Shown piece after piece: positions 26,101 to 46,904 of a DNA stretch of 64,000 nucleotides (position 1 is the stretch's first letter; each line of letters begins with the position of its first letter). The notes below the pieces were generated by a model. The model was not told the DNA's origin. It saw nothing but the letters and a program-made list of their open reading frames with translations, and ran no database searches. Where the stretch lies: IMG/VR virus record IMGVR_UViG_3300025707_000004, one strand, 5' to 3'. This stretch comes from a virus. A program made the position numbers and the translations under genes.

Positions 26101-26703
26101 ATGCCCAAGCCGAAGCCCACAGAAGTGCAGATTGGCGAGGCCCTACACAACATGGGCGCTCGTGCCCAGGACCGCGTTGCCCGCAGCCGCCTGACCGCAC
26201 CCTACCGCTACGCCAAGGGCGCAGTAAGCCGAGGGGTCTCACGGGCAGCTGGTGCCCCGGTACGGGCAGCCCAGCGGTCGCTGGCATCTATGGCGCTCGG
26301 CAAGAAGTCGAGGCGGGGTCCTTTCCGTGGCAAGCGAATGCACGCTGTCGAGGGTGGCCCGGGTCGCGGTATGCGCGAAATCTCCATGGCGGACTACGAC
26401 GACATCAAAGAGGGGCGCACCAAGGGCAAGGCGTACAAGGCCCGTATCGACGGCAAGACGTATCGCTACGCACGGAAGTTCCGTCCTGGCGGCGCGGTTG
26501 GCATGGCGATGAAGCACCCGTTGCTTGCTGGCGGTGGCGCGTTGGCGGCGTACTGGCTCGCCAAGAAACCGGAGAACCGGCAGGCGGCTAGTGCAATGGG
26601 CGGCGCTATGATGCCCCGACAGCAAATCAACGCATCTCTCGCAGCTCGCCTGCGGCAGCAGCATTCGGTAGAGAACCCCTTGGCGCGTGAGGTCTGGCAG
26701 TGA
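26101..26703 (+). CDS. basic putative virion protein with hydrophobic Gly-rich segment
   Basis: 200 aa, coupled to both neighbours. Confidence 0.6.
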   Translation: MPKPKPTEVQIGEALHNMGARAQDRVARSRLTAPYRYAKGAVSRGVSRAAGAPVRAAQRSLASMALGKKSRRGPFRGKRMHAVEGGPGRGMREISMADYDDIKEGRTKGKAYKARIDGKTYRYARKFRPGGAVGMAMKHPLLAGGGALAAYWLAKKPENRQAASAMGGAMMPRQQINASLAARLRQQHSVENPLAREVWQ

Positions 26704-27320
26704 TTACTGACGAGCGACGAACAGCACTCCTCGAAAAGCTCGGCGCCAGCCTCGGCGAAACGGTGTTCGGGGACAGCCCTGGTAAGGCGCTTGCCGGGTA
26801 TGGGCGCAGCCTCGTTGGCGACACGACCAAGGGTGTCCTCAAGGACGTCATCTCCGAGCAGCTGAAGGAGCGGCTCAAGCCGAAGCCCACAGTAAGCAAA
26901 ATGATCTTCGGTCGCGGCGGTGCGCTCAAGAAGGCGCTCGCATTCGGTGCGGTCGCGGCGGGCATCGGCGGTGGCGTCGGCTTGGCGGACATGGCCATTG
27001 GCAAGGTCCACGGCTCGGTCACCAAGAAGAAGGGCTTCCAGGACATGATGGATGCCAACCCGCAGTTCAAGAAGGAGCCAAAGAAGGACGTGCAGGGCAT
27101 CTTCAATACCCTCTACAACTTCGCGCCGACCATGGCGAAAGACCCGTTGGTCGCCGGCTCCTTCATGAAGAAGCAGCTGCAGTTCAAGACCGAGGGCATT
27201 CAGGCCCCTGACGTGAAGACCCTCAGTGAAGTTACCCGCAACCTGGGCGGGGCGCGCAAGGAGTCCATCCTGGCTCGCGCCTTCGGTGCCGTTGCCGCTG
27301 CCCCCGGAATGGACATCTAA
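26700..27320 (+). CDS. leader-bearing basic protein (MITDERRTALLEKLGA)
   Basis: Shared N-terminal leader and a Gly-zipper segment. Confidence 0.7.
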   Translation: MITDERRTALLEKLGASLGETVFGDSPGKALAGYGRSLVGDTTKGVLKDVISEQLKERLKPKPTVSKMIFGRGGALKKALAFGAVAAGIGGGVGLADMAIGKVHGSVTKKKGFQDMMDANPQFKKEPKKDVQGIFNTLYNFAPTMAKDPLVAGSFMKKQLQFKTEGIQAPDVKTLSEVTRNLGGARKESILARAFGAVAAAPGMDI

Positions 27321-27782
27321 ATGAACATCGCACGCAAAGCCGCCGTTCTTGAGAAGCTGGCGGGGGCGAAGACGTTCCCAGTTTCTCGCTTCCTGACGAG
27401 CCGCAAAACCGTCGCTGGTGTCGGTGCGGCTTATGGCGGTACTCTCGGCGGAGCCGTAGGCGGCCCTCCCGGCGCAGCTATAGGAGCGGGCATCGGCGGA
27501 CTGTACGGCCTGGGCGCGGCTTCCATCGCTCGTAAGGCGCAGGGCCGTGCCCTCTTGGGTCGAGCACGAAAGCTGGAGTCGACGGGGGCAATGTCGGGGC
27601 TCACCAAGGAAGAGGCCCAACTGTCCTTGCGCTTCCAGGGGGCCTCCAAGGGGAGCCTCCCCTTCATGGGCGGCAAGATGCATCTCAGCGGTAAGGGCAT
27701 GAAGGCCGCTAAGGGCACAGCCCTTGTTGCTACCGGTGCTGCCGGCATCGGCCTGGGGCGCCTGTCCAAAGCGGAGAAGTAG
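27321..27782 (+). CDS. leader-bearing basic glycine-zipper protein (MNIARKAAVLEKLAG)
   Basis: Leader, KTFPVSRF motif and GGTLGGAVGGPPGAAIGAGIGG glycine zipper. Confidence 0.75.
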   Translation: MNIARKAAVLEKLAGAKTFPVSRFLTSRKTVAGVGAAYGGTLGGAVGGPPGAAIGAGIGGLYGLGAASIARKAQGRALLGRARKLESTGAMSGLTKEEAQLSLRFQGASKGSLPFMGGKMHLSGKGMKAAKGTALVATGAAGIGLGRLSKAEK

Positions 27783-27785
27783 CCG

Positions 27786-28436
27786 ATGCTTGCCACCCGT
27801 AAGATAGAGGTGCTGGAGAAGCTTGGGGCAGGGCCAAAGACCTACCCGATTTCCAGGTTCCTGAAGAACCCCTGGGCCGAGTGGGTTATGGGTGGAAATC
27901 CCGGGATGGAGTATATCAAGAACATGACCTACGCCCAGCGCCTTCAAGGGAAGGCGCGGATGGGCACGGGGCTCAAGAACAAGCTCACGGACATGACCAC
28001 GGCGGAAGAGAAGAAGATCATTCGGGCCTTGAGGGCGGACAGCCCTAAGAACCGCGCGCGAGGGGCCGCGAAGCAGACCGCGGGTGTCGCCGCCGCCGGT
28101 CTTGGTGGCGTCGCGGCCGGTAGTGCGCTCAAGGAGAAGAAAGCGGGCGCGAGCACCTACCCGATCCAAAGGTTCATCCATAACCCCTTGGCGGGGATAC
28201 CCCCGCTCAAGTTCCTGCAGAACAAGATTGGTGCTCGGGCTCTTCTAGGCACGTCCCGCGTGCCGCCTTCAGAGCTGAGGGCACTGTCAGGCCACGAGGA
28301 ACGAATTGTGGACGCCCTGCGGGCCACGTCCCGCGGGGGTAGAAAGCGCACGGCCGCGGCTACGGCTGCGGCGGGAACCTTGGCTGCCGCCCTCGGCGTT
28401 GCGGCTGCACCCGGCCGTCGCAAGAAGAAGGACTGA
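27786..28436 (+). CDS. leader-bearing basic protein with two tandem TYPIxRF modules
   Basis: Leader MLATRKIEVLEKLGA. Modules KTYPISRFL...EEKKIIRALRA and STYPIQRFI...EERIVDALRA, each ending in a hydrophobic Ala/Gly segment. Confidence 0.75.
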   Translation: MLATRKIEVLEKLGAGPKTYPISRFLKNPWAEWVMGGNPGMEYIKNMTYAQRLQGKARMGTGLKNKLTDMTTAEEKKIIRALRADSPKNRARGAAKQTAGVAAAGLGGVAAGSALKEKKAGASTYPIQRFIHNPLAGIPPLKFLQNKIGARALLGTSRVPPSELRALSGHEERIVDALRATSRGGRKRTAAATAAAGTLAAALGVAAAPGRRKKKD

Positions 28437-28438
28437 GC

Positions 28439-28888
28439 ATGCGCAGCGCCCGAAAAGCCCATGTCCTGGAGAAGCTCGCCAAGCTGCGGGTCATCGGTGA
28501 CGTGAGCCCCGAGAATGTGGCCGCGCTTGAGCAGTTGCAGAGCAAGCCAAAGAAGAAGAAGACCTATCCGATTTCTCGGTTCATGACGTCTCCCCTCGCT
28601 TCGGGTTCCGTTGCCGCTGTTGGTGGTGGTGTAGTGGGGCTCTTGGGGGCTAAGCGCCGTATTCAGGCAGCTGCCCGTATGGGCTACCCCATGCCGCGGT
28701 CAGCGAAAGCCACGCTCCTTCTTGGTACGCTTCTCGGTGTTGGGGCAGGCGCCGGCATTGACAGCGGGATGTCGTTCTTGCGGAACAAGGTGCGGGCTCG
28801 TGCGTTGAAGGGGAAGGCCAACCTCAATGACAAGGGTTGGTCTTCTCGTGAAGAGAAGCAGATCATCAAGAGCCTGCAGAAGAAGTAG
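28439..28888 (+). CDS. leader-bearing basic membrane-segment protein
   Basis: Leader MRSARKAHVLEKLAK, KTYPISRF motif, two hydrophobic segments, EEKQII. Confidence 0.75.
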   Translation: MRSARKAHVLEKLAKLRVIGDVSPENVAALEQLQSKPKKKKTYPISRFMTSPLASGSVAAVGGGVVGLLGAKRRIQAAARMGYPMPRSAKATLLLGTLLGVGAGAGIDSGMSFLRNKVRARALKGKANLNDKGWSSREEKQIIKSLQKK

Positions 28889-28890
28889 GG

Positions 28891-29232
28891 ATGACCCGCG
28901 CACGCAAACAGCAGGTCCTGGAGAAGCTCGCGGGCTGGCTCACCCCTAACGGGTGGGACAAGAAGCGTAAGTGGGTGCACGACCACCAGAGCACCACTGC
29001 TTCTATTGTTCGGGCGCTTGTTCCTGCCGCGCGGAATACCCGGGGTAGCAAGAGTCTGCCTCCCCCAACGTTGGGGCAGTACCGCGCTGAGCGTGCTGCA
29101 GGGGTGTCCCGTAAGCTGACCAAGGGCAAGAACTGGCACGTCACCCCTGACGCGAAGCCGCTGGTCAGTAAGGTGCCGAAGCGGCATGTAGTAACTTACA
29201 AGAAGCAGCCCCAACCTGTAGCGAGCCTGTAG
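28891..29232 (+). CDS. leader-bearing basic protein
   Basis: Leader MTRARKQQVLEKLAG. Confidence 0.7.
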   Translation: MTRARKQQVLEKLAGWLTPNGWDKKRKWVHDHQSTTASIVRALVPAARNTRGSKSLPPPTLGQYRAERAAGVSRKLTKGKNWHVTPDAKPLVSKVPKRHVVTYKKQPQPVASL

Positions 29233-30890
29233 TGGACAAGCTCATCACTTTCTCTGGCGTCTCCTCTACGGGGGAGCCCCTCGTCCAGGCGTTGTTCCCT
29301 GACGTCGACGACGGGAAGGTGAAGGTTGCATCCTTCAGCCGTCTCCACCCGGAGATGCAGAAGTACGTCGACAGTTACAAGCCGCGCCCCGGCAAGCTGT
29401 GCGTCCTGGTCAACGCCCTCGGTGCGGGTGAGTACTACGGCTCCAACGTCAACGCGGATTACTTCGAGGAGTCGGAACTCGACCCGCAGGAGTTCAAGGG
29501 GCTCCCGGTCGACGTCAACCACCCGAGCCTGTACGGGCACCAGACGTTTCTCCGCGCGAACGTCTTCAGGCACCACAAGAACAAAGACCCCGGCATCACC
29601 TACGGGCAGATCGTAAAGGTCGTCTACAACGAGGTTATGCACCGCGTCGAACTCATCATTGAGATTGACCGACGCCGTGCTGAGGAGCTGGGGTACCAGG
29701 ACCTCTTGTCGGAGCTGGATGCGGGCGGCCACCCAGCCGTAAGCATGGGTGCGCGGGTCAAGTACGACGTCTGCAGCATCTGCGGCAACAAGTCGTTCAC
29801 GCGCGCTGACTACTGCAACGACATGAAGATGATGCGCAATCAGGTCCTCCCTGATGGCCGCAAGGTGTTCGTGTACAACCCGAAGCCGAAGTTCTTCGAC
29901 CTGAGCTTCGTCATCATCGGTGCAGACAAGACCAGCTACGCCATGCTCAAGGTGGCCTACGCCCAGGAGGCGTTGCAGCACGGCCTGTCGGCTGACGCTG
30001 CGGCTGTAGCCGGAACGGGCCGAGACTTCGACCGCCGCATCCTCTTGCAGAAGATGGCGGAGGTCCAGAAGAAGGCCACCATCACCAAGCGCATCCCTTC
30101 GCTGGCCCATGGCCTCAGTCCGCACCTTGCTTCCCGTGAGCCCGACATGGACATGGGGCAGATGCAGGAGCTGGCGAGGCAGCCAATCGAGCGGACCCTC
30201 ACCAGTACCGGCGCTGCTGGGATGGTGTTGAAGCCCTCGGAGTTCCAGACCATCGTGCTCATCAAGATGCGCCAGCCCCGTTTGGCGCGCGAGATGTGGG
30301 ACGGCGGTCAGTGCTTCGCCCCTGAGTCCGGTGCGGATATGGGGATGCGTTGGGGGAGCCCCCGCGATTATCAGCCGCTAATAACGCGCGCCCTGAGTCG
30401 CATCCTCGGACGTCGTAGTGCGCTGGGTGAAGACCCCGGTGTAGGCCGCCCTCGCTGCATCGTTCGCGTTGTCCGGCCGGTCGAAAGTAACACCCCTCTT
30501 CTCACGAAGGTGGCCGAGGGTTACAACGGATACAGAATTCAGCTTCTGGAGAAGGCACCTTCTCTAGTAAGCTCAGTGACAAGTAGAGACGGAGACCTGC
30601 TATCAACCGTCTTCGGCGAAGTGCTTGAAGGTTCGTTGCTGGGTTTGGAAAAGAGCGCTGGGATCCCCCCCGAGCTACTGACCGACACCAGCCTTGCTTA
30701 CCTTTATGGGGCTCACCACCAAGGTTTCGGTGGGCTTACGAAGAGCGCTTCCGCTGTTGATGAGTTCGTTGAGCGGCATCCCGTGCTGGCGGCATCGCTT
30801 CTGCTCGGTTTGGTTCGACTTGGGAACCAACTGCACAGGACTGGAAAGCTCGGTCAGCTTTTGCATGCAGGTCTAGCTAAGCTGACCTGA
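29232..30890 (+). CDS. putative prohead (capsid maturation) protease with Zn finger
   Basis: RHHKNKD...GQIV, VSMGARVKYDVCSICGN and FFDLSFVIIGAD resemble the His/Ser motifs of HK97/assemblin-type proteases. Lies upstream of the scaffold and MCP. Confidence 0.65.
   Translation: MDKLITFSGVSSTGEPLVQALFPDVDDGKVKVASFSRLHPEMQKYVDSYKPRPGKLCVLVNALGAGEYYGSNVNADYFEESELDPQEFKGLPVDVNHPSLYGHQTFLRANVFRHHKNKDPGITYGQIVKVVYNEVMHRVELIIEIDRRRAEELGYQDLLSELDAGGHPAVSMGARVKYDVCSICGNKSFTRADYCNDMKMMRNQVLPDGRKVFVYNPKPKFFDLSFVIIGADKTSYAMLKVAYAQEALQHGLSADAAAVAGTGRDFDRRILLQKMAEVQKKATITKRIPSLAHGLSPHLASREPDMDMGQMQELARQPIERTLTSTGAAGMVLKPSEFQTIVLIKMRQPRLAREMWDGGQCFAPESGADMGMRWGSPRDYQPLITRALSRILGRRSALGEDPGVGRPRCIVRVVRPVESNTPLLTKVAEGYNGYRIQLLEKAPSLVSSVTSRDGDLLSTVFGEVLEGSLLGLEKSAGIPPELLTDTSLAYLYGAHHQGFGGLTKSASAVDEFVERHPVLAASLLLGLVRLGNQLHRTGKLGQLLHAGLAKLT
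30369..30383. repeat. TATCAG-CCG-CTAATA (1-mismatch palindrome copy)
   Basis: Read directly. Inside a CDS. Confidence 0.75.
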
Positions 30891-30964
30891 TTGAGCGCAC
30901 CTAGACTCGGAGAACCGGGTCGACGATGATGCCCTCGCTCTGACATTCAAAAAGGGATTCAAAA

Positions 30965-31603
30965 ATGAGCAACAGTTTTGTTGACCAGCTCCTGTCCGGT
31001 GGTACCGACCACGGCGAGCTGGAGAAGATCGCGGGCCCTGAGGCCCTCAACGTGCTCGAAGAGCTGGAGAAGACCGCGGCTGCTGAGGGCATCGACCTCG
31101 GCCAGTTCACGGACGACCAGATCGTCGAGATGATTCGTCAGACCATGGGCGAAGAGGTCGGCGAGCAGGTCGCTGCCGCTCCTGGTGGCGAAGAGGGCGT
31201 GGAGAAGGTGGCTTCGGCTCCCGGCAACGACCTCCCCGCTGGCGTCGACATGGAGAAGGTCGCTGCGGCGGACTACCTCGGTCGCGTTCAGGCGCACGCC
31301 ATGGCTGAAGAGCTGGCGGGCATCTGGGGCCAGGGTGACGACGGCATGGACAAGGTCGCGAGTGTCGAGGACATCACCGAGGACGAGTTCAACCAACTCG
31401 CCGCGATGAACGCCAACGACATCTTGGAGCAGCTCGGCGCGCTGGAGGGTGACACCCTGGAGCAGACCGAGGGCCGCGAGAAGGTCGCTTCGCTCTCGTT
31501 CGACGAGGAGCTGACCGACCTGCTTGGCAACCGCACCGCGGAGCTGCTTGACGCGGCCGGCTGGGATGTGGACGCCATCGCTGCGGCGTTCGACGAGGAG
31601 TAA
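30965..31603 (+). CDS. acidic scaffold-like protein with six (E/D)K-x-A repeats
   Basis: ELEKIA, ELEKTA, VEKVAS, MEKVAA, MDKVAS and REKVAS. Lies between the protease and the MCP. Confidence 0.6.
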   Translation: MSNSFVDQLLSGGTDHGELEKIAGPEALNVLEELEKTAAAEGIDLGQFTDDQIVEMIRQTMGEEVGEQVAAAPGGEEGVEKVASAPGNDLPAGVDMEKVAAADYLGRVQAHAMAEELAGIWGQGDDGMDKVASVEDITEDEFNQLAAMNANDILEQLGALEGDTLEQTEGREKVASLSFDEELTDLLGNRTAELLDAAGWDVDAIAAAFDEE

Positions 31604-31625
31604 TCCTCATCGGGTCCGCTTGAAG

Positions 31626-31660
31626 AAGGGCGGGGGAAGCAATTCTCCCGTCCTTTTTTC
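31626..31660 (+). terminator. intrinsic terminator
   Basis: Hairpin AAGGGCGGGGGA...TCTCCCGTCCTT followed by a T-run. Confidence 0.7.
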
Positions 31661-31680
31661 TGACTACCGCTTCGACAAAT

Positions 31681-31695
31681 TATTAGCCGGTAATA
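31681..31695. repeat. TATTAG-CCG-GTAATA (1-mismatch palindrome copy)
   Basis: Read directly. Intergenic. Confidence 0.75.
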
Positions 31696-31733
31696 CTCTA
31701 AGAACTGTCGAAGTAGCGCCTACCTGAAAGAGA

Positions 31734-32348
31734 GTGGTGATGAACCAGTCGGTCAGAGACATGATTGAACGCCTCGGTGGCGCTCCCGAGTCTGCAAGCG
31801 TTCCTACGGATTCTGTCGTTGAGACGGATTACGTGGAGAAGCTGGCGTCGGCTTGCGAAGAGGTCCTGAGCACGGGCTTCGCCTTCACCGCTGATGCCCC
31901 GGCTGCTCCCACCTTCGACCCGCAGCTGGTCGTTGGGGGCGTTATCGCTCGCATGAAGGAGAAGCAGGCGTCGGTGGCCGATGACCGCCGGTCGCACATC
32001 ACAACCAAGGTTCTGGCCAAGTTGGCCGCCGTTGAAGCCGCGCAAGCGGTCGCAGCCCCTGATGAGCCCCCGCCCCCGCCTGAAGAGGCTGGAGAGGCGG
32101 AAGAGGACCAGGAAGCTGCCGCGGAGGCCCAGGCCGAAATGAGCGAAGACGAGAACCTGGAGCACTTGTCCCTTTCGGACGTGCTTCAGGATGCTCTCGG
32201 AGCGGGTACCTCCGACGCGAGCCCTGACCAACAGGCAGGGGCCGAGACCGGTGATGAGGCAACCAGCGACATCGGGGACAAGGTGAGGCAGAGCCTCATC
32301 AAGAAGCTGAAAGTTCGGGTCCACCCTGAGCAGCAGCGAGGAGCGTGA
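31734..32348 (+). CDS. acidic scaffold-like head protein
   Basis: VEKLAS, EKQAS and AKLAA motifs, in the head cluster. Confidence 0.55.
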   Translation: MVMNQSVRDMIERLGGAPESASVPTDSVVETDYVEKLASACEEVLSTGFAFTADAPAAPTFDPQLVVGGVIARMKEKQASVADDRRSHITTKVLAKLAAVEAAQAVAAPDEPPPPPEEAGEAEEDQEAAAEAQAEMSEDENLEHLSLSDVLQDALGAGTSDASPDQQAGAETGDEATSDIGDKVRQSLIKKLKVRVHPEQQRGA

Positions 32349-32349
32349 G

Positions 32350-32709
32350 ATGTTGACCAAAGAGGCAGCTCAGGAAGTTATGGCCGCGGTTCCGGGGGTT
32401 CTTCGTGCCTTGGTGGCGGAGCGCGACGCGCTTCGTGCCGAGAACGACGGGCTGAAGGAGAAGCAGGCATCGGCTGACCTTGCCGGAGACGTGGTCGACC
32501 TGATGGAGTCGCGTGGTCTTGGAGAGGCGGGCATGTCCCGCAAGGAAAAGATTGCGGCTCTTCTGATCTCAGGACGTGACCTCAACGTGCTGCAACAGGC
32601 GGTCTCGATGCAGGCGCCAGAGATGTCGTTTTCCAAAGTTGCTAGTTCAGCGTCCGAGGGGGGCCAGAGCGGAGACCGCTTTGAGTCCTACCTTCGTGGC
32701 GGGAACTAG
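32350..32709 (+). CDS. coiled-coil scaffold-like head protein
   Basis: TKEAA, EKQAS, EKIAA and SKVAS motifs. GGAG RBS. Confidence 0.55.
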   Translation: MLTKEAAQEVMAAVPGVLRALVAERDALRAENDGLKEKQASADLAGDVVDLMESRGLGEAGMSRKEKIAALLISGRDLNVLQQAVSMQAPEMSFSKVASSASEGGQSGDRFESYLRGGN

Positions 32710-32737
32710 AGTTCAGACGTACAAGGAGAAATAAAAA

Positions 32738-33331: not shown

Positions 33332-33334
33332 TCG

Positions 33335-34531
33335 ATGAGTGTTGCAAATGACGCCCTGAACGCCCTCTTCGCGCAGAAGCTCGATACGGCTGAAGGCAAA
33401 GAGAAGATCGCCGCCTACGGTTCGGACTGGATTCGGGACCGCCTCCGCGAGGAGTCGTTCGCTCGGAAGATCCTGCCGCCACGTCAGGTCGGACGCAGTG
33501 AGCTGCAGGTGTCGGTGAACCACGACACCCTGATCAAGATCGTCGAGACTGAGCCGGAAAGTCGTGCCATGAGCATGTCGTTCCGTGGTCAGCCCGACGT
33601 GAACTACTACACGGCGAGCCGGTTCGAGGTGCCCTTCCACGAGGTGGGTTCCCCGCGGTTCGAGCAGACGACCCAGGAGCTGGCCGCCTACACGATCCCC
33701 GTCACGGCGATCATCAAGCGGCACATCGTCAACGACATCCAGGAGGTTGAGGACGTCACGTTCTTGAACCACGTGGAGTCGGCGTGTCAGTCGCTGCAGG
33801 AGGACGCCAACGGGCTGGTCTTCGGCGCGGTCTACGCGGACGATGACGCTTTCTCGGCTTTCAACGTTGCCCAGGGCACCGTGAAGGAGCTGGGCAAGGT
33901 CAAGGGAATCGACGTCATCCAACAGTCCGCCGCGGCCAACGCCGAGGATGGTCTGGACGAGGACCTCATCTTCCCGCTGCAGAAGGACGACATCATCAAG
34001 CTGGGGAAGCTCTTCCCCGGTCGTGGTGGTGCCCGCAACGGTCGCCTGCGTGCTGAGAAGCTTCTCATCACGGACACCGACCTGATGGACGCTGCGGCGT
34101 GGACGACCTCGGACGCGGGTGACAAGATCCCCGGCGAGACGGCCGTCAGTGGTTGGAAGTACAAGTCCCTCGTGGGGCTCACGTACATCCGTACGCTGAA
34201 GACCGACATCCTGCGCCCTGGCAACCTCTACGCGTTCTGTTCGCCCGACTACCTTGGCGGGTTCCTCATCCTGAACAAGACGCAGTTCTACGCGGACAAG
34301 GAGCGCAACCGCGTTTCCTTCGAGGCGTGGGAGGACATCGCCATCTACCTCGGCAACGTCGCCGCAGTTCGCAAGTTGGAGCTGTACGCGGGTGCTGTTG
34401 AGTTGGTCGACGACGTCCTGCACAACCCGACTCCCCGGGCGGACTTCCTTCCGTTCGCTGAGAAGGACCTGGGCAAGCTGAACAACCTCGTGGAAGAGAA
34501 CATCACCTTCCCCGCGGTCTCGCAGTTCTAG
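33335..34531 (+). CDS. major capsid protein
   Basis: 398 aa. IRDRLREESFARKILPP N-terminal pattern of HK97-fold capsid proteins. Follows protease, scaffold and decoration genes, and is followed by a terminator. Confidence 0.75.
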   Translation: MSVANDALNALFAQKLDTAEGKEKIAAYGSDWIRDRLREESFARKILPPRQVGRSELQVSVNHDTLIKIVETEPESRAMSMSFRGQPDVNYYTASRFEVPFHEVGSPRFEQTTQELAAYTIPVTAIIKRHIVNDIQEVEDVTFLNHVESACQSLQEDANGLVFGAVYADDDAFSAFNVAQGTVKELGKVKGIDVIQQSAAANAEDGLDEDLIFPLQKDDIIKLGKLFPGRGGARNGRLRAEKLLITDTDLMDAAAWTTSDAGDKIPGETAVSGWKYKSLVGLTYIRTLKTDILRPGNLYAFCSPDYLGGFLILNKTQFYADKERNRVSFEAWEDIAIYLGNVAAVRKLELYAGAVELVDDVLHNPTPRADFLPFAEKDLGKLNNLVEENITFPAVSQF

Positions 34532-34545
34532 CAGCCCGCTAGAGG

Positions 34546-34575
34546 GGTGGAGGGGCTTAGTTCCCTCCACCTTTC
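34546..34575 (+). terminator. intrinsic terminator after MCP
   Basis: Hairpin GGTGGAGGG...CCCTCCACC followed by TTTCT. Confidence 0.65.
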
Positions 34576-34625
34576 TGCTACCCTCTTAGACGTGGCCGTG
34601 AGTCATTTCAAACTGAGGTAGTCAA

Positions 34626-35234
34626 ATGCCCTTCCGAATCCGACACCTTCACGAGCATCGCAACGACCCCAAGCGTCGTGGAGCGAACCGTGCGGGGAAT
34701 CTCCTGCTGCGTCGTGCCAAGGTAAACATCGGAGGCAGGGTTCTGCGCGAGGGCCGCGGCATCGTTCTCCCTGACGCGGTTGTGCTGAAGTACCTTGCTC
34801 TCCTCCTCCAGTACCGCGACGCCGGGCTGATTGAGGTCTTTCCTCTCCCCCGCACTCCGGACGAGATGTACGAGAAGCTGGGCATGACCCCGCCCGCTCT
34901 TCCGCCGGAACCTGAGCCCGAGCCGGAACCTGAGCCCGAGCCGGAACCTGAGCCTGAGCCGGAGCCCGAGCCTGAGCCGGAGCCCGAGCCGGAACCTGAG
35001 CCCGAGCCAGAGCCGGAGCCCGAGCCGGAGCCGCAGCCCGAGCCCGAGCCGCAGCCCGAGCCCGAGCCCGAGCCCGAAGAAGAGGAAGAGGAAGAGCCGG
35101 AGCCGGAAGAAGAGGAAGAGCCCGAGCAGGAAGAAGAGCCTGATGGGGACGCCCCCGCTGCAGCTCCTTCAGCCCGTAAGCGCCCCCGGGGCCGACGAGC
35201 GCGGGCGGTAGCCAAGAAGACGAAGGAAGAGTAG
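34626..35234 (+). CDS. protein with long Pro-Glu repeat
   Basis: GAGGT RBS, globular N-terminus, (PE)n tract and basic tail. Confidence 0.7.
34905..35140 (+). repeat. 6-nt-period coding tandem repeat (CCN GAR)n encoding (PE)n
   Basis: Read directly. Confidence 0.9.
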
Positions 35235-35240
35235 GCCACC

Positions 35241-36130: not shown

Positions 36131-36132
36131 AC

Positions 36133-36498: not shown

Positions 36499-36511
36499 GG
36501 GAGGGGTACCG

Positions 36512-37282: not shown

Positions 37283-37288
37283 GCACGC

Positions 37289-38819: not shown

Positions 38820-38893
38820 ACAGCCTTGTTTTGAGCACGTGCCGCCGACTGGCACACTCCATTTGGGTACTGCAATGAGGAGCCGGAAACACA

Positions 38894-41800
38894 ATGGCAC
38901 AGCTTAGGCGCCCCAGTGTCGAGATTGACCAGCAGCTCAGTGCTGCTGCCCCCACCGTTCTGGAGCCCGACCTCGTTGCTTGCATCGTTGGGCCTTGCTT
39001 CCAGATTGTTGAACCCCTGGACGCTGACGGCGCCCTGAACGCGAAGGCGCAGGTGCTTACCGGAGCGGTCATCCGCAGCTCGGCAGCAGTTGGGGCGGCG
39101 ATTGCCGGCTCCGGCAAGAAGCTGAGCATCGCGGTCGACGGGGCTCCGGGGCAGGTCATCAACCTCCCGGTCACCGTTGGTGGGGCTACGCTCTCGCAAG
39201 AGATCGTCCAGAACAGCATCAACGCCCAGCTCACCGGAGCGACGGCGCTGTTCCAGGACAACAAGCTCGTGCTTGCGACGGTCACCAAGGGGAGGAGTGC
39301 TCGACTCAAGTTGGAGGTCATCGCGGCTGACGCGTACACCCTGCTCAACTTGACTGCGGACACGGAGACCCTCGGTACGGATGGCTACACCGGACAGGAC
39401 TACGAGGTTGGCTTCGGCGACCTTCCGTCCCCGATGGCGTCCATCGGCGAGGTCGCCATCGATGCCGACGACGTCACGCCCTACCGGTACTTCGCTGGCA
39501 CGCTCCAGCCCTTCCGCGACGACGCGTCGGGTAACTGGAACTCGTTCACCGGCTCCGCCAGTGAGTTCGCGAACGTGGTCACGTCGCTGGTCAACCAGCC
39601 TGCGCTGGGCAACCTGCGGACCAACTTGACCGGCCGCAGCATCCCGGGCTCGAAGACCAACACGCTGGTTCACACCGGTCGTGAGGCGAGCATCAAGATT
39701 CCCCTCGCCCACTTGGCGAAGGGCTCCGGTACCGAGCAGTGGCCTGACGTCACTGGGCTGAACTGGTTGAACGTCGAGGCTATCGGCCTTCAGAACTGGC
39801 GTAAGGACCAAGCGAACGGCGTGCCGGGCAACTTCATTGGTGCCCTAGGCAATGCGGTCAACGTGAAGTTCACGACGGTTGTCGGGCTGGACGCGGGCAC
39901 GGCGAAGTTCGTGTACACATCCGGCACCAAGACCTTGGACGTCCAGCGGCAGGCCGTCACGGTCACGTACGACGCCCTTCAGACGGCGCTCGACGCGGGC
40001 ATCGGCGGGATGGACACGGCGAAGGACCTCATCGTCACGCTGAACTTCGCAGACGGCATGGGGGCGGTTCCCTTCCTTCCTACGGCTGGCCTGCAGGCGG
40101 AGTGGCACTGCGGCGGAGGCGAAGACGCCCCCAACTTCAAGGCCGACCACACGACCATCGTGGCGTCCATCACTGGCGCGATGCCGGTGGAAGCTGCCGA
40201 TACGGCCGAGACCGAGCTGGGCATCAGCGGCAAGCTGAGCCTGTCCATCCACGGAGGTCCTTGGATTGACGTGGACATGTCCGGTGTGGTGGTTGACGCC
40301 ATCCACGCGGTCGCTGGTATCTCCTGCACCAGTGTGGCTGTGTTCTCACCCGACGATGACAACGGCGATGCAACCGTGGGCAAGTCGATCAACGTGCTGC
40401 GCATCAGCACCACGGATGGCGGCCTCGGCCCGGACTCGTCCCTCGAAATCAAGGCGGACAACGACGCCATCCTGGAGACGCTCTTCGGCGGCTTCAAGTC
40501 GCGGACGGCCACGCTTTCGGGCATCGGTACCGCTGGTGGTGCTGGCTGGCAGGACGCACGTCGTCGCCACGTCCTCGCCAAGGCGAACTACAACTCGCGT
40601 GCCGGTGCTTCGCGTGACGGGGCTCTCGTCCCGGGCGCGCAGACCATCGCGTACACGGGGCTGACGTCTCCGGCGTTCATCCTCTGTGACGTCACCCTCG
40701 GGGCACTGGCGGACCACGACGGCGTCTTGGACGTCAAGCACTCCGCCTACGACGGCGGCGCGGGCACCGTTGTCTCTCTCGCCATCGACGCGTTCGTTGG
40801 TACTCCGACGCTCGCGGAGGTCGTGAAGGAAATCGACGAGCAGATTCAGGCGGAAGCTGACCCTGGTGGTGGAGACCTCGATACGTTCATTGGCGTGAGC
40901 GAGCTGAACGGGCGTATCTGCTTCTTTGACCGGAAGCACGTGAATGGGGCGACCATTCGTCTGCTCTCGGATGCGGCAGGCAGCACCACTGCTGCCTTCG
41001 AGACCGCTCTGGGCGGGGCCGCTGCTTCTTTCGACCAGGACGCCACCACGGTGACGAACGCGTCGTGCAAGATTCAGGACAAGGGCGCCAACTTCGCGCT
41101 GCGGATGATCGAGGTGGGGCACGCGTTCTCGAACGGCGTCTTCCCGTCCACCTTCACCGTCACCTCAGAGTCGGACCTGACTGACTCGGTCCTCAGCTCG
41201 GTCGCGGGCGAGTCGGCCATTGTCTACAGCACGGGCGCCGTCACAATCACCTTCAGTGGTGAGAATGTGCTCGACCGCGTTGTTGCTGACGACGATGAGT
41301 TGTCCCTCTTGCTCCGGTTCACCGGTACGGGCGATGCGACGACGAGCGACACGGCGCTCACCTTCCGGCGTGTGTGGGCCAACGCGTTCCACTCTGAGCA
41401 GATTTCCTACAAGGGTCGCCTGTTCACTGGTGGTGCCGCCAAGGTCAAGCCCGGCGACATGATGTTCAACAACGGGGCCATCCTCGGCCGCGTCGTTGCC
41501 CTCAACGACTTCGTCATCGGCGGAAGCACCTTTACGGGTGGTGAGCTGGTCCTCTCGGAGTTCTCGGTCGACAACAACAAGGACCTCGCCAACTGGAACA
41601 TCGTGGCGGAGAACCTGCCCGACTCTGTCGACCGGCCGGACCTCGCGCCGGAGATGGTCGTCGACACGTTGCTGGAGCGCTTCGTGGTCAAGGGCGGGGT
41701 CAACCGTGACGCTGCTGGCATCCCGATGGGCGGTGTCGCACCGGTCTACGTGGGCTACAAGGCTCTGCGCAAGGACGTGAGTGCGGCGGCCGTCTCGCCT

Positions 41801-43216
41801 GAGATGCTGACCTTCAACAGCGCTGACGAGGTCGAGAGCCTCATCGGTCCGGTCACCCCGGAGAACCCGCTGGCGTTCGGTCTCGCGAAGGCGTTCCTCA
41901 ACCGGACCAACGTGAACATCTCTGCGATGGGTCTGGGGGAGGTCACTGCAGACGCCCCCAACGGTACGGTCGACGCTTACGCGCAGGCCCTGGACTTCCT
42001 CCGAAAGAAGGAGGTCTACGCCCTCGCCCCGCTCACGCAGGACGCGGAGGTCACCAAGCTCTTCAACCTGCACGTCACCGACATGTCGGCGGCGGTTCAG
42101 GGCAAGGAGCGCATCGCGTTCGTGAACGAGGCTCTGCCCACTGAGAAGGTCAGCACGCTGGTCATCTCGGGGTCGATGACCATCACCGACATCGGTGGTG
42201 GCAAGTTCGAGCTGGAGTTCGCCGACGAGACGCTCAACGTCTCCACCGCTATCGACGGCAAGCTGAACGCGGACGGCAATGCCCTCAGTGGTGCTGCCGG
42301 CACGGACTACACGCCGGACGACGGGGTCTACCTCGACCGCGCCGGTGATGCGTTCAAGTGGCTGGTGACCAAGGTGGTCAGCGCGACCGTCGTGCGAATC
42401 GACACCACCAACATCTACATCCCGGGCTTCGGTCCGGGTTCAGGTGGTAACGACGACAACTACTTCCGGACGACCGCAGCTGACCTTGACGACTTTGAGG
42501 TTGATGGGGAGACCTGCTCCATCCTGGTCCGTCAGGCAGCCGTCAAGACCAGCACGACGGCCGGACGGCTGGCTGTTTGCGAGACGATGGCGGAAATCAC
42601 GGGCGGAGCTACCGGTTACCAGAACCGGCGCTTGTTCTACACCCAGCCTGAGAAGGTCGGGACGGACAGCGCGGGCACGGAAATCGTGGTCCCCGGTTAC
42701 TACCTGTGTGCGGCCCAGGCGGCGATGGTGGCTCAGCTGCCCGCGCAGCAGCCGCACACGAACCTGCCGATGGTTGGTTTCACCCGGCCCATCGGGTCGA
42801 GTGACCTCTTCTCGGAAGACGAGATGGCTACCGCGGCTGCGGGTGGCGTGTTCTGGATTCTCCAGGATGCCCCCGGTGGTCCTCTGGCCTGTCGGCACCA
42901 GCTGTCGACGGACCTCAGCTCCATCAAGTCGCAGGAGCTGTCCATCACCAAGGCCATCGACATCTACGCCAAGGCCATTCGGGCTGCGACGAAGCGGATG
43001 ATTGGTCGCAACGTCATCGACAAGTCGTTGCTGGATGCGCTGAACATCTCCCTCCAGGCGGTGTCGGCGAACTACGCGGGTCCGAAGAAGGCCCTCGCAG
43101 CTGCTTCGGTGTCCAGCATCGCTCAGGATACGACTCGCCCGGATGGCGTTCTCGTGACCGTGGATACCATCACGTGGTACCCCTTCAACCGGCTGCGTCT
43201 CACGATTGTGGCCTAG
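38894..43216 (+). CDS. contractile tail sheath protein with large insertions
   Basis: N-terminus RPSVEIDQ...CIVGP. C-terminal sheath core YALAPLTQD, VPGYYLCAA, CRHQLSTD, ELSITKAID and YPFNRLRLTIV. 1440 aa. Confidence 0.8.
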   Translation: MAQLRRPSVEIDQQLSAAAPTVLEPDLVACIVGPCFQIVEPLDADGALNAKAQVLTGAVIRSSAAVGAAIAGSGKKLSIAVDGAPGQVINLPVTVGGATLSQEIVQNSINAQLTGATALFQDNKLVLATVTKGRSARLKLEVIAADAYTLLNLTADTETLGTDGYTGQDYEVGFGDLPSPMASIGEVAIDADDVTPYRYFAGTLQPFRDDASGNWNSFTGSASEFANVVTSLVNQPALGNLRTNLTGRSIPGSKTNTLVHTGREASIKIPLAHLAKGSGTEQWPDVTGLNWLNVEAIGLQNWRKDQANGVPGNFIGALGNAVNVKFTTVVGLDAGTAKFVYTSGTKTLDVQRQAVTVTYDALQTALDAGIGGMDTAKDLIVTLNFADGMGAVPFLPTAGLQAEWHCGGGEDAPNFKADHTTIVASITGAMPVEAADTAETELGISGKLSLSIHGGPWIDVDMSGVVVDAIHAVAGISCTSVAVFSPDDDNGDATVGKSINVLRISTTDGGLGPDSSLEIKADNDAILETLFGGFKSRTATLSGIGTAGGAGWQDARRRHVLAKANYNSRAGASRDGALVPGAQTIAYTGLTSPAFILCDVTLGALADHDGVLDVKHSAYDGGAGTVVSLAIDAFVGTPTLAEVVKEIDEQIQAEADPGGGDLDTFIGVSELNGRICFFDRKHVNGATIRLLSDAAGSTTAAFETALGGAAASFDQDATTVTNASCKIQDKGANFALRMIEVGHAFSNGVFPSTFTVTSESDLTDSVLSSVAGESAIVYSTGAVTITFSGENVLDRVVADDDELSLLLRFTGTGDATTSDTALTFRRVWANAFHSEQISYKGRLFTGGAAKVKPGDMMFNNGAILGRVVALNDFVIGGSTFTGGELVLSEFSVDNNKDLANWNIVAENLPDSVDRPDLAPEMVVDTLLERFVVKGGVNRDAAGIPMGGVAPVYVGYKALRKDVSAAAVSPEMLTFNSADEVESLIGPVTPENPLAFGLAKAFLNRTNVNISAMGLGEVTADAPNGTVDAYAQALDFLRKKEVYALAPLTQDAEVTKLFNLHVTDMSAAVQGKERIAFVNEALPTEKVSTLVISGSMTITDIGGGKFELEFADETLNVSTAIDGKLNADGNALSGAAGTDYTPDDGVYLDRAGDAFKWLVTKVVSATVVRIDTTNIYIPGFGPGSGGNDDNYFRTTAADLDDFEVDGETCSILVRQAAVKTSTTAGRLAVCETMAEITGGATGYQNRRLFYTQPEKVGTDSAGTEIVVPGYYLCAAQAAMVAQLPAQQPHTNLPMVGFTRPIGSSDLFSEDEMATAAAGGVFWILQDAPGGPLACRHQLSTDLSSIKSQELSITKAIDIYAKAIRAATKRMIGRNVIDKSLLDALNISLQAVSANYAGPKKALAAASVSSIAQDTTRPDGVLVTVDTITWYPFNRLRLTIVA

Positions 43217-43219
43217 GAC

Positions 43220-43234
43220 TATTAGCCGCTAATA
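43220..43234. repeat. TATTAG-CCG-CTAATA palindrome
   Basis: Read directly. Intergenic, immediately after the sheath stop codon. Confidence 0.9.
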
Positions 43235-43261
43235 CCTAGCGGTCTTGAGGAGACTCAGCAA

Positions 43262-43729
43262 ATGGCTTCTGATTCCTTCGGCGCTGCGAAGCGCCTTCCA
43301 GGCAAGCGGTTCCGCAGCGGCACCATGGGCGACGCCCTGAGTGAGGTCTACAAGGACGTCGAGGCGGGCTTCGTCGCGAGCGAGCTGAACGGCGTCGTGG
43401 TGCTCCAGCAGGACATCGCGGACGTTGCGACTGCAGACTACGACATCGCCATCACTGACGCGCTGACCCTGATTGACGTCATGGTCATCAAGACCGACGA
43501 CGCGGCGGGTGCCAACGACAACACGGTCACGGTGGTCACCGCCGCCGACGCGGACATCCACACGGCCATCAACATGACCGGTGGTGCGGACGGCGCGGTC
43601 TTCCGCATGTCGGCGGGGTACAACGACGCTACGGCACCCGTCGCTGCTGGTGGGCTCTTCCGTATCGAGCATGTCAAGGCTGGCGGCAATGCCGCTTGCC
43701 GTGTCTTGCTGACCTGCCGTCGCACCTAA
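43262..43729 (+). CDS. putative virion structural protein
   Basis: GAGGAG RBS. Beta-rich, 155 aa. Confidence 0.6.
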   Translation: MASDSFGAAKRLPGKRFRSGTMGDALSEVYKDVEAGFVASELNGVVVLQQDIADVATADYDIAITDALTLIDVMVIKTDDAAGANDNTVTVVTAADADIHTAINMTGGADGAVFRMSAGYNDATAPVAAGGLFRIEHVKAGGNAACRVLLTCRRT

Positions 43730-43733
43730 GCCG

Positions 43734-44501
43734 ATGCTGACTTCACGCAAGGTGTCGCTGCTTGAGAAGGTGGCTGCAGACAGCAAGACCTACGGCGATT
43801 ACCGGCGTGGGGCGGATTCGGCAAACGCTGAAAGCGCCAAGCTCCAGGCGCGCATCCAGAAGCAGGCCCCCGTCAAGGGGTCGAAGTCTTGGCACGCCCG
43901 CGGTAGCCTCAAGCGCGCCATTCAGCGACGGGGGCAGGTCCGGCTTCGTGGCAAGGCCCGCCGCTCGGCTGCTCGTGCTGCGCAGGCAAACGCGAACGTC
44001 CGGAGCTTCCCGAAGGCGCGGCGAGGCCACCAGTGGTCCGTCATACCGGACAAGAAGCCCCTGAAGCCCCACGTGGGCAAGGGTACTCTCGGGCAGCGTC
44101 GTGCTCAGGCAGGCTCGCCTGTCAGTGCGGGCTACAAGCTGCACAAGGACGAGAAGCGCCTCAAGCGCCACGTGGGCAAAGGCACGGCCGGTCAGCGGAT
44201 TGCCGAGGGGAACTACAAGGCCACCGAGGTCATGGGTCTCGTTCGGCGCGCTGCAGCCAACCGGAGCTACTCCCCGTGGAAGAAGCTCCAGGGCGAGCTG
44301 GCTGGTGCGAAGTCCAAGGGTCGGGAACTCGGTTCGTCGGTGATGGCAGCTAAGGCCAAGGCCAAGGCAACCGCCGCTGCAGCCAAGACAGCCCGCTATG
44401 GCGCTCCACCCTCACAGCCCGGCCCCGGCTGGTTCAAGAAGCTGACAGAACGCAAGAAGGCTCTGGGTACGCTCAGCCAAGCCTTGGCTGACAATAGTTA
44501 G
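43734..44501 (+). CDS. leader-bearing basic protein
   Basis: Leader MLTSRKVSLLEKVAA. Internal repeat LKPHVGKGTLGQR / LKRHVGKGTAGQR. Confidence 0.7.
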   Translation: MLTSRKVSLLEKVAADSKTYGDYRRGADSANAESAKLQARIQKQAPVKGSKSWHARGSLKRAIQRRGQVRLRGKARRSAARAAQANANVRSFPKARRGHQWSVIPDKKPLKPHVGKGTLGQRRAQAGSPVSAGYKLHKDEKRLKRHVGKGTAGQRIAEGNYKATEVMGLVRRAAANRSYSPWKKLQGELAGAKSKGRELGSSVMAAKAKAKATAAAAKTARYGAPPSQPGPGWFKKLTERKKALGTLSQALADNS

Positions 44502-44542
44502 AATCGTAGACTCAAAGAGAGCTGAAGAAGGAGCCTAAGGAA

Positions 44543-45325
44543 ATGGCTGAGGGACTCGCAGGGTGGAAGCCGTACTCCACACACGTACAGGGCGGCATCC
44601 CTGAGGGGAACTTCCTCAACGGAAAGTTCGTCCTCATCTGTGCAGGACCCCCCTTCTTCTCCCAGGTGGGCTTGCCCGCTGGTGAGGGAAGTGACCCGAA
44701 CCTCGCTGAGACGCTGGTGTTCCCCATCGGCATGACCCAGAACTGGGCTCTCAGCCAGAATCAGGCCATCACGCGCATCTTCGAGCTGGGCTCGGAGCGG
44801 TCGTACTTCATGACCGGCCGCAGCGTGGGCCAGATTTCGTTCGGGCGCATCATGTACCACGGGCCGTCGCTCTTGCGCTGCCTGACCGCGTACTACGACA
44901 CCCGCGCCGACGCGAACGTGGACGCCCATCAGGTGCGCCCACTCTTCGAGTCTGGTGGTGTTGGCGTCAATCCGTTCCTGACCGGCGCTGCCGGCGGACG
45001 GAGCCCGAGCCTGCACTCGGTGAAGGTGCCCCCGGGCTACGACAACATGTTCTTGAACTTGGCGTCCGACCTGTTCAGCCAGCCCATCGGGCTCCTGCTG
45101 GTCATGAAGGACAACCAGGAGAACAACGTCGCGTCGATGTACCTGGAGCAGTGCATGATTCCCCAGCACTCGATGGCGGTCGACGCCCAGGGTCTGGTCA
45201 TGCAGGAGTCGGTTGCCATCCAGTACGAGCGCATCCAGCCCATCCGGTTGGCCCAGCTCCAGCTGGCTGAGACCTTCTTGGCCCCTGATGCGACCGGCGG
45301 CTACCACGGCGGCCGTCTCGTCTAA
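44543..45325 (+). CDS. tail tube protein
   Basis: PIGMTQNWALSQNQAITRIFELGS, MYLEQC and ESVAIQYERI segments. Downstream of the sheath. Confidence 0.65.
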   Translation: MAEGLAGWKPYSTHVQGGIPEGNFLNGKFVLICAGPPFFSQVGLPAGEGSDPNLAETLVFPIGMTQNWALSQNQAITRIFELGSERSYFMTGRSVGQISFGRIMYHGPSLLRCLTAYYDTRADANVDAHQVRPLFESGGVGVNPFLTGAAGGRSPSLHSVKVPPGYDNMFLNLASDLFSQPIGLLLVMKDNQENNVASMYLEQCMIPQHSMAVDAQGLVMQESVAIQYERIQPIRLAQLQLAETFLAPDATGGYHGGRLV

Positions 45326-45376
45326 GCTCGCCTGAAGGGCTCCCCCTTCGTCAGTTGAAAGACTTGGAGGTCTGAA

Positions 45377-45790
45377 ATGGATTGGGCAACACTTGGCTCG
45401 ACCGCAGCTTCGTATCTTCTCCCTATCTTGGAGATCGCGGCCATCATCATCGCCCGACTGGGCTACCAGTGGGTGAAGGCGCGCTTCAAGCTGGACATCT
45501 CCGAGCGCCAGGAAGAGCAGATTCGCCTGGGCATCCGCAATGGTGCCCGCGGTCTGGAGGAGATGGCTGCGAAGCAGCTCAAGGCCGACCCCGAGGGCGC
45601 TGGCATCGACAAGGCCAAGCTCCTGTGGGGCATGATTGAGAAGAAGTGGCCGGACCTCACCGGTGATGAGTTCGACGCCATGCTCAACGAGGAGCTGGCG
45701 TACATGGACGGCATGGGCGCTTCCGGTGGCGCTCAGGGGGTCATGCCCGAGGATGCTCCAGCTATCCTGGCCCCCGCAGGTGGACCATGA
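45377..45790 (+). CDS. holin-like membrane protein
   Basis: N-terminal hydrophobic helix then an amphipathic region, resembling LL-H-type holins. GGAGG RBS. Confidence 0.45.
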   Translation: MDWATLGSTAASYLLPILEIAAIIIARLGYQWVKARFKLDISERQEEQIRLGIRNGARGLEEMAAKQLKADPEGAGIDKAKLLWGMIEKKWPDLTGDEFDAMLNEELAYMDGMGASGGAQGVMPEDAPAILAPAGGP

Positions 45791-46020
45791 CCCCCGCACG
45801 CAAAGCCGCCGTTCTTGAGAAGCTCGCCGCGGACAAGAAGAAGTCAAAGCGTGTCTGGGTGGCAGACAACCCAGTCAGCATCCTCGGCACCCCTGTCGGG
45901 CGTAGTTGGTACGGCAGCGACCTCCGGAAGAAGCTCCGTGCTGGCTCCCCTACTAAAGCGCAGCATGAGGCAGAAAAGCGGTTGGGGGTGGAAACGAGCG
46001 GGCACAAGTGGAACCCCTGA
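45787..46020 (+). CDS. leader-bearing small basic protein
   Basis: Leader MTPARKAAVLEKLAA. Confidence 0.7.
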   Translation: MTPARKAAVLEKLAADKKKSKRVWVADNPVSILGTPVGRSWYGSDLRKKLRAGSPTKAQHEAEKRLGVETSGHKWNP

Positions 46021-46029
46021 GGACGTTTA

Positions 46030-46257
46030 ATGACGAACGCACGCAAAGCCGCCATCTTGGAGAAGCTCGCCGCGGGTATACTGCCTAAGCTGGTCCGCGC
46101 CGCCGTAAAAAAGACCCCGAAGAAGGTCCCGAAGAAGGTCCCGACGAAGCCCCCGGTTGCGAAGCCGCCCGCGCAGAGCAAGGAAGAGTTCACAAAAGCG
46201 CTCCGGGATAAGTTCCGTAAGGGCGACTACAACCGAGTAAAGATCGGTCTGACATGA
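46030..46257 (+). CDS. leader-bearing small basic protein
   Basis: Leader MTNARKAAILEKLAA, followed by PKKVPKK repeats. Confidence 0.7.
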   Translation: MTNARKAAILEKLAAGILPKLVRAAVKKTPKKVPKKVPTKPPVAKPPAQSKEEFTKALRDKFRKGDYNRVKIGLT

Positions 46258-46904
46258 ACAACACCCGCAGAGCCGCCATCCTTGAGAAGCTCGCTGCTCC
46301 CTATTCCGCAGGCGGGGGTGAGCCCACCATTCCAGGGCGCATGCGCCCTGCACACGCTCGCAGAAACCTGACCCAACTCAAGAAGGCGCCACTCTCTGGT
46401 TCCGGTAAGATCGGGGTTATGGCTCGCGCAGGCGCTGTGCCGGGCCGGATAAGTCGGGGGGTCAAGAACCTCGCCTTCTCGAAAGGGCTTGACGGTCCTC
46501 GTGTCCGCCCTAGCCCCATGCCGGCGCGGTCCAAAACGAATCGGTACGGTGTGCCGCTCAACAAGACCGCTGGCCCGAAGCACGAGGGCGGTGGGATGAC
46601 ACTCCGCCATTCCGAGCAGTACTACCGCGGCAAGCGTGCTGACAGGGCTGCGATGGCTGCGAGCCGGCAGTCGAAGCGGCTGGTTGACAGCGCCGCGTCG
46701 TCGGATGCCATCTTCAAGGCGAACCGGAAGAATTACATGAGGGAGAGCGGAAACCAGGCCGCTGGGAGCCTCTCCAACGCACGGTACTGGAAGGGGCAGA
46801 GCCGGAAAAACACCGCCTCGGCTCGACAGTGGCGGGACAAGGCGAAGGGCTTCCGCAAGGAGAAGGGCCAAGCGCGGTTCACTATGAAGATGCTGAACAA
46901 GTAG
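46254..46904 (+). CDS. leader-bearing basic protein
   Basis: Leader MNNTRRAAILEKLAA. Confidence 0.7.
   Translation: MNNTRRAAILEKLAAPYSAGGGEPTIPGRMRPAHARRNLTQLKKAPLSGSGKIGVMARAGAVPGRISRGVKNLAFSKGLDGPRVRPSPMPARSKTNRYGVPLNKTAGPKHEGGGMTLRHSEQYYRGKRADRAAMAASRQSKRLVDSAASSDAIFKANRKNYMRESGNQAAGSLSNARYWKGQSRKNTASARQWRDKAKGFRKEKGQARFTMKMLNK

Follow-up and report, generated by a model that had tools for sequence, protein, structure and literature searches.

In phage T4, the internal proteins IPI, IPII, IPIII and Alt carry a capsid targeting sequence (CTS) that is removed by the prohead protease gp21 (PMC9026906, PMC3012670). Sites for this protease (L/I-x-E) occur many times in acidic core proteins, mark short N-terminal pieces on mature components and are also present in the protease (PMC9026906); the same pattern of sites is found for the proteases of giant phages (PMC10052503). 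Nine genes with a comparable arrangement are described here from the virus record IMGVR_UViG_3300025707_000004 of IMG/VR, of which a stretch of 64,000 nucleotides was analysed (the window). The genes lie on the + strand between 26700 and 46904 and share an N-terminal leader of 14-15 residues. Their products are likely to be internal proteins of the head, packaged along with the DNA and probably ejected, with the leader serving as a propeptide similar to the T4 CTS.

As in T4, a short N-terminal peptide is found on small, basic and otherwise dissimilar proteins of a phage with a gp21-fold protease. The tag ends in a motif that also marks the scaffold, the capsid protein and the protease, with many sites in scaffold-type proteins, and the cargo set varies among close relatives while the tag stays constant. 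A T4-CTS-like tag was the core of the original prediction, and every computational test that was run agrees with it: a gp21-fold protease is encoded nearby, and the leader ends in the motif found in a scaffold-like protein, the capsid protein and the linkers of the protease. However, the phage lineage is not T4-type but that of Arash-like phages of ~180-190 kb; the leader is 14-15 residues long rather than 10; its motif, hydrophobic-x-K-x-A-[S/A/G], uses Lys and Ala where that of T4 is L/I-x-E; and the protease, unlike T4 gp21, has 552 amino acids (aa) and an extra helical C-terminal domain. A functional analogy only is provided by adenovirus pVII and pX/Mu, polycationic DNA-associated capsid precursors that the viral protease trims at a short consensus; the virus, the protease fold and the motif are all unrelated to those of this phage. 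Giant phages (SPN3US gp245, phiKZ gp175, 201phi2-1) have many head and ejection proteins with N-terminal propeptides ending in one motif, and as further likenesses their protease removes its own C-terminal part and long propeptides contain several sites (PMC10052503). In contrast to the phage described here, the giant phages cut after Glu, their propeptides are mostly 111-254 residues long and vary between proteins, and no single short leader is common to a family of small polycations (PMC10052503). What is new here is the Arash-like lineage, the Lys/Ala motif that is proposed to be read by a gp21-fold protease, and a direct view of cassettes being exchanged at the leader between near-identical phages.

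The nine open reading frames (ORFs) have the leader pattern M-x-x-[AST]-R-K-x-x-[ILV]-L-E-K-[LV]-[AG] in common, and the ORF listing returns all of them on the + strand with the positions and N-termini given in the original prediction. In a six-frame translation of the window, [LIVM][LIVM]-E-K-[LVI]-[AG] matches nine times, always at these N-termini, compared with 0.13 matches in base shuffles, which establishes that the leader is shared. Equal frequency on non-virion genes had been named beforehand as a result that would speak against a packaging tag; none of the ~19 non-structural genes on the minus strand of the window has the leader, and the nine genes that carry it all belong to the + strand structural block. 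Its codons vary synonymously among copies and the 30 nucleotides upstream are unrelated, so the leader is conserved at the protein level, and a DNA-level repeat or a promoter cassette is ruled out on the same grounds. Mean DNA identity between copies is 0.64 across the 45-nucleotide leader versus 0.28 across the next 45 nucleotides, and the leaders of genes 27321 and 45787, 18 kb apart, share an exact match of 30 nucleotides. Alignment of 36 members gives the consensus M-[NTE]-x-[AST]-R-K-x-x-[ILV]-L-E-K-L-A-[AGS], which is of fixed length and loses its conservation abruptly past position +3. Upstream of the motif, Arg occupies position -7 in 35 of the 36 members, Lys position -6 in 30 and Met position -11 in 32. 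No sequence likeness of the leader to the T4 CTS was found, the enriched motif being hydrophobic-x-K-x-A-[SAG] and not the gp21 specificity L/I-x-E.

The uncultured phage whose structural block makes up the window is distantly related to Salmonella phage Arash (L001) and to three Vibrio phages, with a capsid protein 35-37% identical to theirs in its N-terminal part. Five leader genes are located between the terminase-side genes and the protease gene, and the other four downstream of the gene for a sheath-like protein (38894-43216). The large terminase gene (22080-25088) carries a Hint/LAGLIDADG intein. Adjacency of the first cluster to a putative prohead protease was also part of the original prediction, and this cluster directly abuts a + strand gene (29232-30890) whose 552-aa product has the fold of T4 gp21. 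The fold, of the gp21/assemblin type, is established for the N-terminal domain (residues 1-230), which is followed by a helical C-terminal domain. Sequence comparison is less informative: Pfam gives no family at E <= 0.01, PHROGs returns only weak matches (phrog_18299, 8.6e-5; phrog_2774, of unknown function, 1.2e-15), and a sequence-profile search of the PDB gives no match and does not reach gp21. Homologs number more than 1,000, many of them on contigs of 150-200 kb, and two of them (P0001 and P0002) are 92-96% identical. A scan of viral contigs with the single protease sequence found nothing, whereas an alignment-based scan did find relatives. The protease gene itself contains an intein in some relatives (P0002, P0065, P0076, P0089); P0002 is a 916-aa protein that combines a 92% identical protease with Hint and LAGLIDADG domains.

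Scanning relatives with a hidden Markov model of the leader had been proposed as a check; when this was done, the conserved end of the leader turned up inside other head proteins too. This core, hydrophobic-x-K-x-A-[S/A/G], is enriched about tenfold in head-module proteins. In the 59 window proteins, [LIVMF]-x-K-[LIVMTSEQ]-A-[ASG] occurs at 38 sites, whereas shuffles that preserve composition give 3.6 (at most 9); with the nine leader proteins removed, 31 sites remain against 3.2. Of these 31, all but one belong to the + strand structural block. No site is found in the 2491-aa RNA polymerase, the terminase or the sheath. Together with the nine leader matches against 0.13, the 38 sites against 3.6 rule out a chance origin of leader and motif. 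The enrichment is also seen in a cultured phage: the head module of Arash (gp220-gp226) has 20 sites versus 1.4 expected, including sites in the protease homolog gp222 and at residue 25 of the capsid protein.

The positions at which the motif occurs, and their conservation, are equally well established, beginning with the genes that follow the protease gene. The acidic scaffold-like protein (30965-31603, + strand, 212 aa, net charge -41) contains six sites at intervals of 15-45 residues; by a loose regular expression the count is 5 against 0.02 expected, and orthologs in relatives retain the sites. The major capsid protein (33335-34531, + strand), assigned by a tblastn match to that of Arash, contains G-K-E-K-I-A-A at residues 21-27, and G-K-[ED]-K-[ILVM]-A is kept in nearly all of 65 capsid homologs, a conservation that is inseparable from that of the region in general. 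Just downstream of the capsid gene lies the gene for a 202-aa acidic protein (34626-35234, net charge -29) with a (P-E)n repeat of up to ~50 units. In the protease, sites at residues 29-34, 271-277 and 472-477 fall in flexible linkers (predicted local distance difference test, pLDDT, below 50), where all 27 homologs have K31, A33 and K474, 24 of them retain A476 and 23 retain K274/A276 amid variable surroundings. In the SNF2 helicase (16476-19679, + strand; Pfam SNF2-rel_dom, 9e-26), the motif is found at residues 416-421, after an extension of 415 residues. The alignment of this helicase to the ~590-aa proteins of relatives starts at window residue 416, which is their residue 7, so that the motif marks the boundary between the conserved core and a variable part at the N-terminus (6 or 415 residues). 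The 415-residue extension itself is missing in relatives, and its residues 23-168 match a separate gene of 600 aa in L077, so the helicase gene is a fusion joined at the motif site.

Sites are also found in further acidic proteins, all encoded on the + strand. A 648-aa protein (13257-15203) has about nine positionally conserved sites and is a candidate for a core protein that is cut many times; its orthologs have a leader-like N-terminus (M-E-L-V-R-K-...-F-E-K-T-A-S). Its AlphaFold model (AF2, mean pLDDT 62) matches no solved fold, and a search of the protein atlas gave no usable match. A conserved acidic head-module protein of 332 aa (25100-26098) has three sites, and two small acidic head-module proteins (31734-32709) have sites as well. 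Orthologs of the first of these two (31734-32348) start with M-S-S-L-[ND]-x-L-I-[EQ]-K-L-A-G; the corresponding stretch of the window copy reads M-I-E-R-L-G-G, a naturally occurring form of the motif with Arg for Lys and Gly for Ala. Several further head-block proteins of relatives begin with a short peptide that ends in the motif.

The history of the leader can be followed in relatives whose protease is ~45% identical. Their gene order is conserved: the terminase is followed by genes of ~358 and ~202 aa, by a single leader gene, by a gene that has no leader and begins with M-x(5-9)-K-D-Y-P-I-S-R-F, and by the protease gene. Three complete genomes have one strong leader match each. Gene 26700 is the ortholog of this single leader gene (40-56% identity, E down to 3e-41), gene 28439 and its paralogs match the leaderless gene, and the other five leader genes have no counterpart there. 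Because the single leader gene of the relatives is the ortholog of 26700, the leader is ancestral on one core gene and has spread to eight more in the lineage of the window. Further leader genes were sought in metagenomes with a back-translated leader pattern. Its strict form found nothing in viral contigs; metagenome contigs yielded nine leader ORFs in L092, five in L090, three in L094, two in L085 and one each in L087, L093 and L095, all of them polycationic. Pattern matches in bacterial genomes (L096-L101) were rejected as ordinary near-neutral bacterial proteins in about the number expected by chance. An exhaustive profile search of 1.84 billion representatives recovered ~15 N-terminal clusters of the family and ~30 unrelated repeat proteins, so the expansion of the leader is restricted to a narrow lineage. 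Repeat proteins of the LRV/HEAT type likewise swamped a leader-profile search of a 5.8-billion protein set. Such repeats (~30 residues, N-P-N-T-P-x-x-V-L-E-K-L-A-x-D) were rejected as the source of the leader, which occurs once, at residue 1, in small proteins, as opposed to 3-12 internal copies in the LRV/HEAT proteins P0148-P0183, which are of near-neutral composition.

Cassette-like turnover is established by the contig L092, which comes from nearly the same phage as the window (flanking proteins 94-99.6% identical). It also has nine leader genes. Some of these are in other slots than in the window, and no more than two of the nine correspond to window genes: one is the ortholog of 43734, with 50% identity, and the other is 38% identical to its counterpart. 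In L090, four leader genes are present where the window has none. DNA homology between L092 and the window ends at window position 43732, two bases ahead of the leader ATG of gene 43734; a homology block at 45356-45828 ends exactly at the leader/body junction of gene 45787; and homology resumes at 46916, past the last leader gene. In between, only the leaders (~42 nucleotides) cross-match. The suggestion that the cargo is interchangeable fits these data well, since near-identical relatives keep the leader but carry different bodies and the homology breaks at the leader/body junction.

The nine leader proteins are all basic (pI 9.9-11.7, net charge +10 to +45), in line with the strongly cationic bodies predicted. 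Four of them (26700, 27321, 27786, 28439) have Gly/Ala-rich hydrophobic segments, and the other five (28891, 43734, 45787, 46030, 46254) are hydrophilic polycations. The prediction of Gly-zipper helices in several members holds as far as these four segments are concerned, but the match of 27321 to Gly-zipper_YMGG (PF13441) is weak, at 16.8 bits under a Pfam gathering cutoff of 28.9. The statement that the bodies are largely unrelated holds only in part: three of them, the only detectable paralogs (27321, 27786 and 28439), are weakly related, with K-T-[YF]-P-[IV]-S-R-F in common, and short internal modules recur in some bodies. Searches of Pfam and PHROGs with the nine bodies gave nothing usable, and no family match assigns a function to any of them.

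All nine genes can be described individually. The first (26700-27320, 206 aa) begins with a GTG that overlaps the stop codon of the preceding gene and encodes the leader, a basic linker, the Gly/Ala-rich hydrophobic segment and a conserved C-terminal domain, an architecture also seen in P0133, P0134, P0136 and P0147. It is followed by 27321-27782 (153 aa, net charge +18), with a body of the Y-P-I-S-R-F family and Gly-zipper-like segments, by 27786-28436 (216 aa, +26), whose Y-P-I-[SQ]-R-F-family body is internally duplicated, and by 28439-28888 (149 aa, +22). The body of the latter resembles the leaderless Y-P-I-S-R-F gene located ahead of the protease gene in relatives (blastp E of 5e-7 to those of L004, L010, L013 and L016). 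The last gene of this cluster, 28891-29232 (113 aa, +19), encodes a hydrophilic polycation with an internal G-Q-x-x-A-E module and is without counterpart in the ~45% relatives. In the second cluster, 43734-44501 (255 aa, +45) specifies a polycation with two G-Q-x-x-A-[EQ] modules, 45787-46020 (77 aa, +10) and 46030-46257 (75 aa, +16) are the smallest members, the second with a C-terminal G-D-Y-N-R-V-K tail common to two L092 members, and 46254-46904 (216 aa, +37) matches L092 in its leader alone.

Short pieces recur in several bodies. The internal module [PG]-x-x-[TS]-x-G-[QH]-x-x-A-[AEQ] is found in 6 of 29 leader-protein bodies versus 0.07 expected (window genes 28891-29232 and 43734-44501; L092 5749; L090 2242, 1724 and 1332), and a C-terminal G-D-[YH]-[NK]-x-V-K tail is common to three small leader proteins. 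Some cargo bodies are therefore mosaics built from short pieces in common. In P0190, a metagenome protein of 143 aa that belongs to the leader family, a second copy of the motif region (R-I-L-E-K-I-A-K-R-S) is located at the C-terminus.

These features can be combined into a four-step scheme. The propeptide has a fixed R-K pair and probably forms a short amphipathic helix; together with the polycationic body, it would bring each protein to the acidic scaffold or core of the prohead. The gp21-fold protease (29232-30890) would then clip off the leader by reading hydrophobic-x-K-x-A-[S/A/G] at its end, and would cut the same motif in the scaffold-like protein, at the capsid N-terminus, in its own linkers and in other core proteins. 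The cut bond could lie after Lys, judging from the spacing of L/I-x-E, or it could lie after Ala, by analogy with the Ala|Ser sites of assemblin-type proteases and in view of the collapse of conservation after +3. Acidic scaffold fragments would exit, and the basic mature proteins would remain with the incoming DNA. Finally, recombination at the leader would place new bodies behind it and generate a fast-changing cargo set; if only the leader is needed for loading, the bodies would be exchangeable. The cargo may consist of membrane-active, DNA-condensing or anti-defence proteins.

Several points weigh against a cleaved packaging tag. That the proteins are targeted to the prohead, clipped and carried in virions, like the position of the cut bond and the role of the cargo, is what we infer from patterns in the genome. 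The motif differs from every documented gp21-type specificity, which is L/I-x-E in T4 and [S/A/G]-x-E in giant phages, and the protease residues His115 and Ser171, invariant in 27 homologs, are only putative counterparts of the gp21 catalytic residues. Four of the nine leader genes sit among tail genes. V-L-E-K-L-A is a common helix element of the unrelated LRV/HEAT repeats, so this stretch of the leader may be helical and not extended. Several conserved sites of 13257-15203 lie on confidently predicted beta-strands, to which a protease would have difficult access. In addition, the published Arash proteome reports 100% coverage of several motif-bearing proteins. However, this proteome lists 116 virion proteins, metabolic enzymes among them, so the preparation was probably not pure, and since trypsin cuts after Lys, these data leave the matter of processing undecided.

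The beta-strand sites, the helical propensity of L-E-K-L-A and the full peptide coverage would also be accommodated by an uncut leader that acts as a docking peptide. The motif would then be a linear binding motif for one common partner in the prohead (such as the helical C-terminal domain of the protease, the inner surface of the capsid or the portal), the N-terminal leader would hold the cargo to it permanently, and the repeats of the motif in scaffold and core proteins would be multivalent tethers. Encapsulin cargo-loading peptides, which are uncleaved shell-binding tags, provide a precedent. We nevertheless regard docking without cleavage as unlikely, because the placement of the motif (at mature N-termini, in acidic scaffold-like proteins, in protease linkers and at the 415-residue boundary of the helicase) is the signature of gp21-type processing, and the phage encodes a gp21-fold protease that must have substrates. 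The leader could, conversely, be a cut site without an address, the polycations entering by charge and the leader keeping membrane-active or DNA-binding bodies inactive until it is clipped. Entry of this kind would be favoured by opposite charges, the net values being +10 to +45 for the bodies and -23 to -41 for the scaffold-like proteins, and by the fact that many proteins without the R-K part of the leader contain the generic motif. The conserved upstream part of fixed length (Arg at -7, Lys at -6, Met at -11) is unexpected if only the cut site matters, and in the T4 CTS the N-terminal half serves targeting and the C-terminal half processing; entry by charge with no address is therefore rather improbable. 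It is very improbable that the leader has no role in the virion and is an N-terminal helix for membrane insertion, lysis timing or turnover of host-takeover proteins, its likeness to the head motif being incidental. The Gly/Ala-rich hydrophobic segments of four members and the lack of family matches that would assign a function to the bodies are compatible with such a role, but the + strand structural block contains all nine genes and the minus-strand block none, the ancestral member is conserved between terminase and protease genes in all relatives, and the presence of the motif in capsid protein, scaffold-like protein and protease as well greatly exceeds what chance would give. A clipped leader that directs head-internal proteins into the prohead thus remains the favoured explanation.

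A broader and more tentative proposal, which at present we would rather doubt than adopt, is that Arash-like phages may have their own code for capsid addressing and processing, composed of the R-K leader and hydrophobic-x-K-x-A-[S/A/G], in which the specificity of the gp21 fold has moved from Glu to Lys/Ala. In one marine sublineage, the leader may double as a recombination joint that swaps injected polycations between near-identical phages. Since Arash is cultured and its head module is enriched in the motif, the central claim is directly testable. A short portable tag of this kind could also be of use for loading capsids with foreign proteins, a task for which the T4 CTS has already been employed. 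If the favoured explanation is correct, it would define which motif is recognised by an unstudied branch of gp21-fold proteases, and mature virion proteins would become predictable in more than 1,000 related uncultured phages. The fast-evolving injected polycations would be candidates for functions in host takeover or anti-defence. Head loading by a short clipped tag would then be a general solution, reached by separate lineages with different codes, and not a peculiarity of T4.

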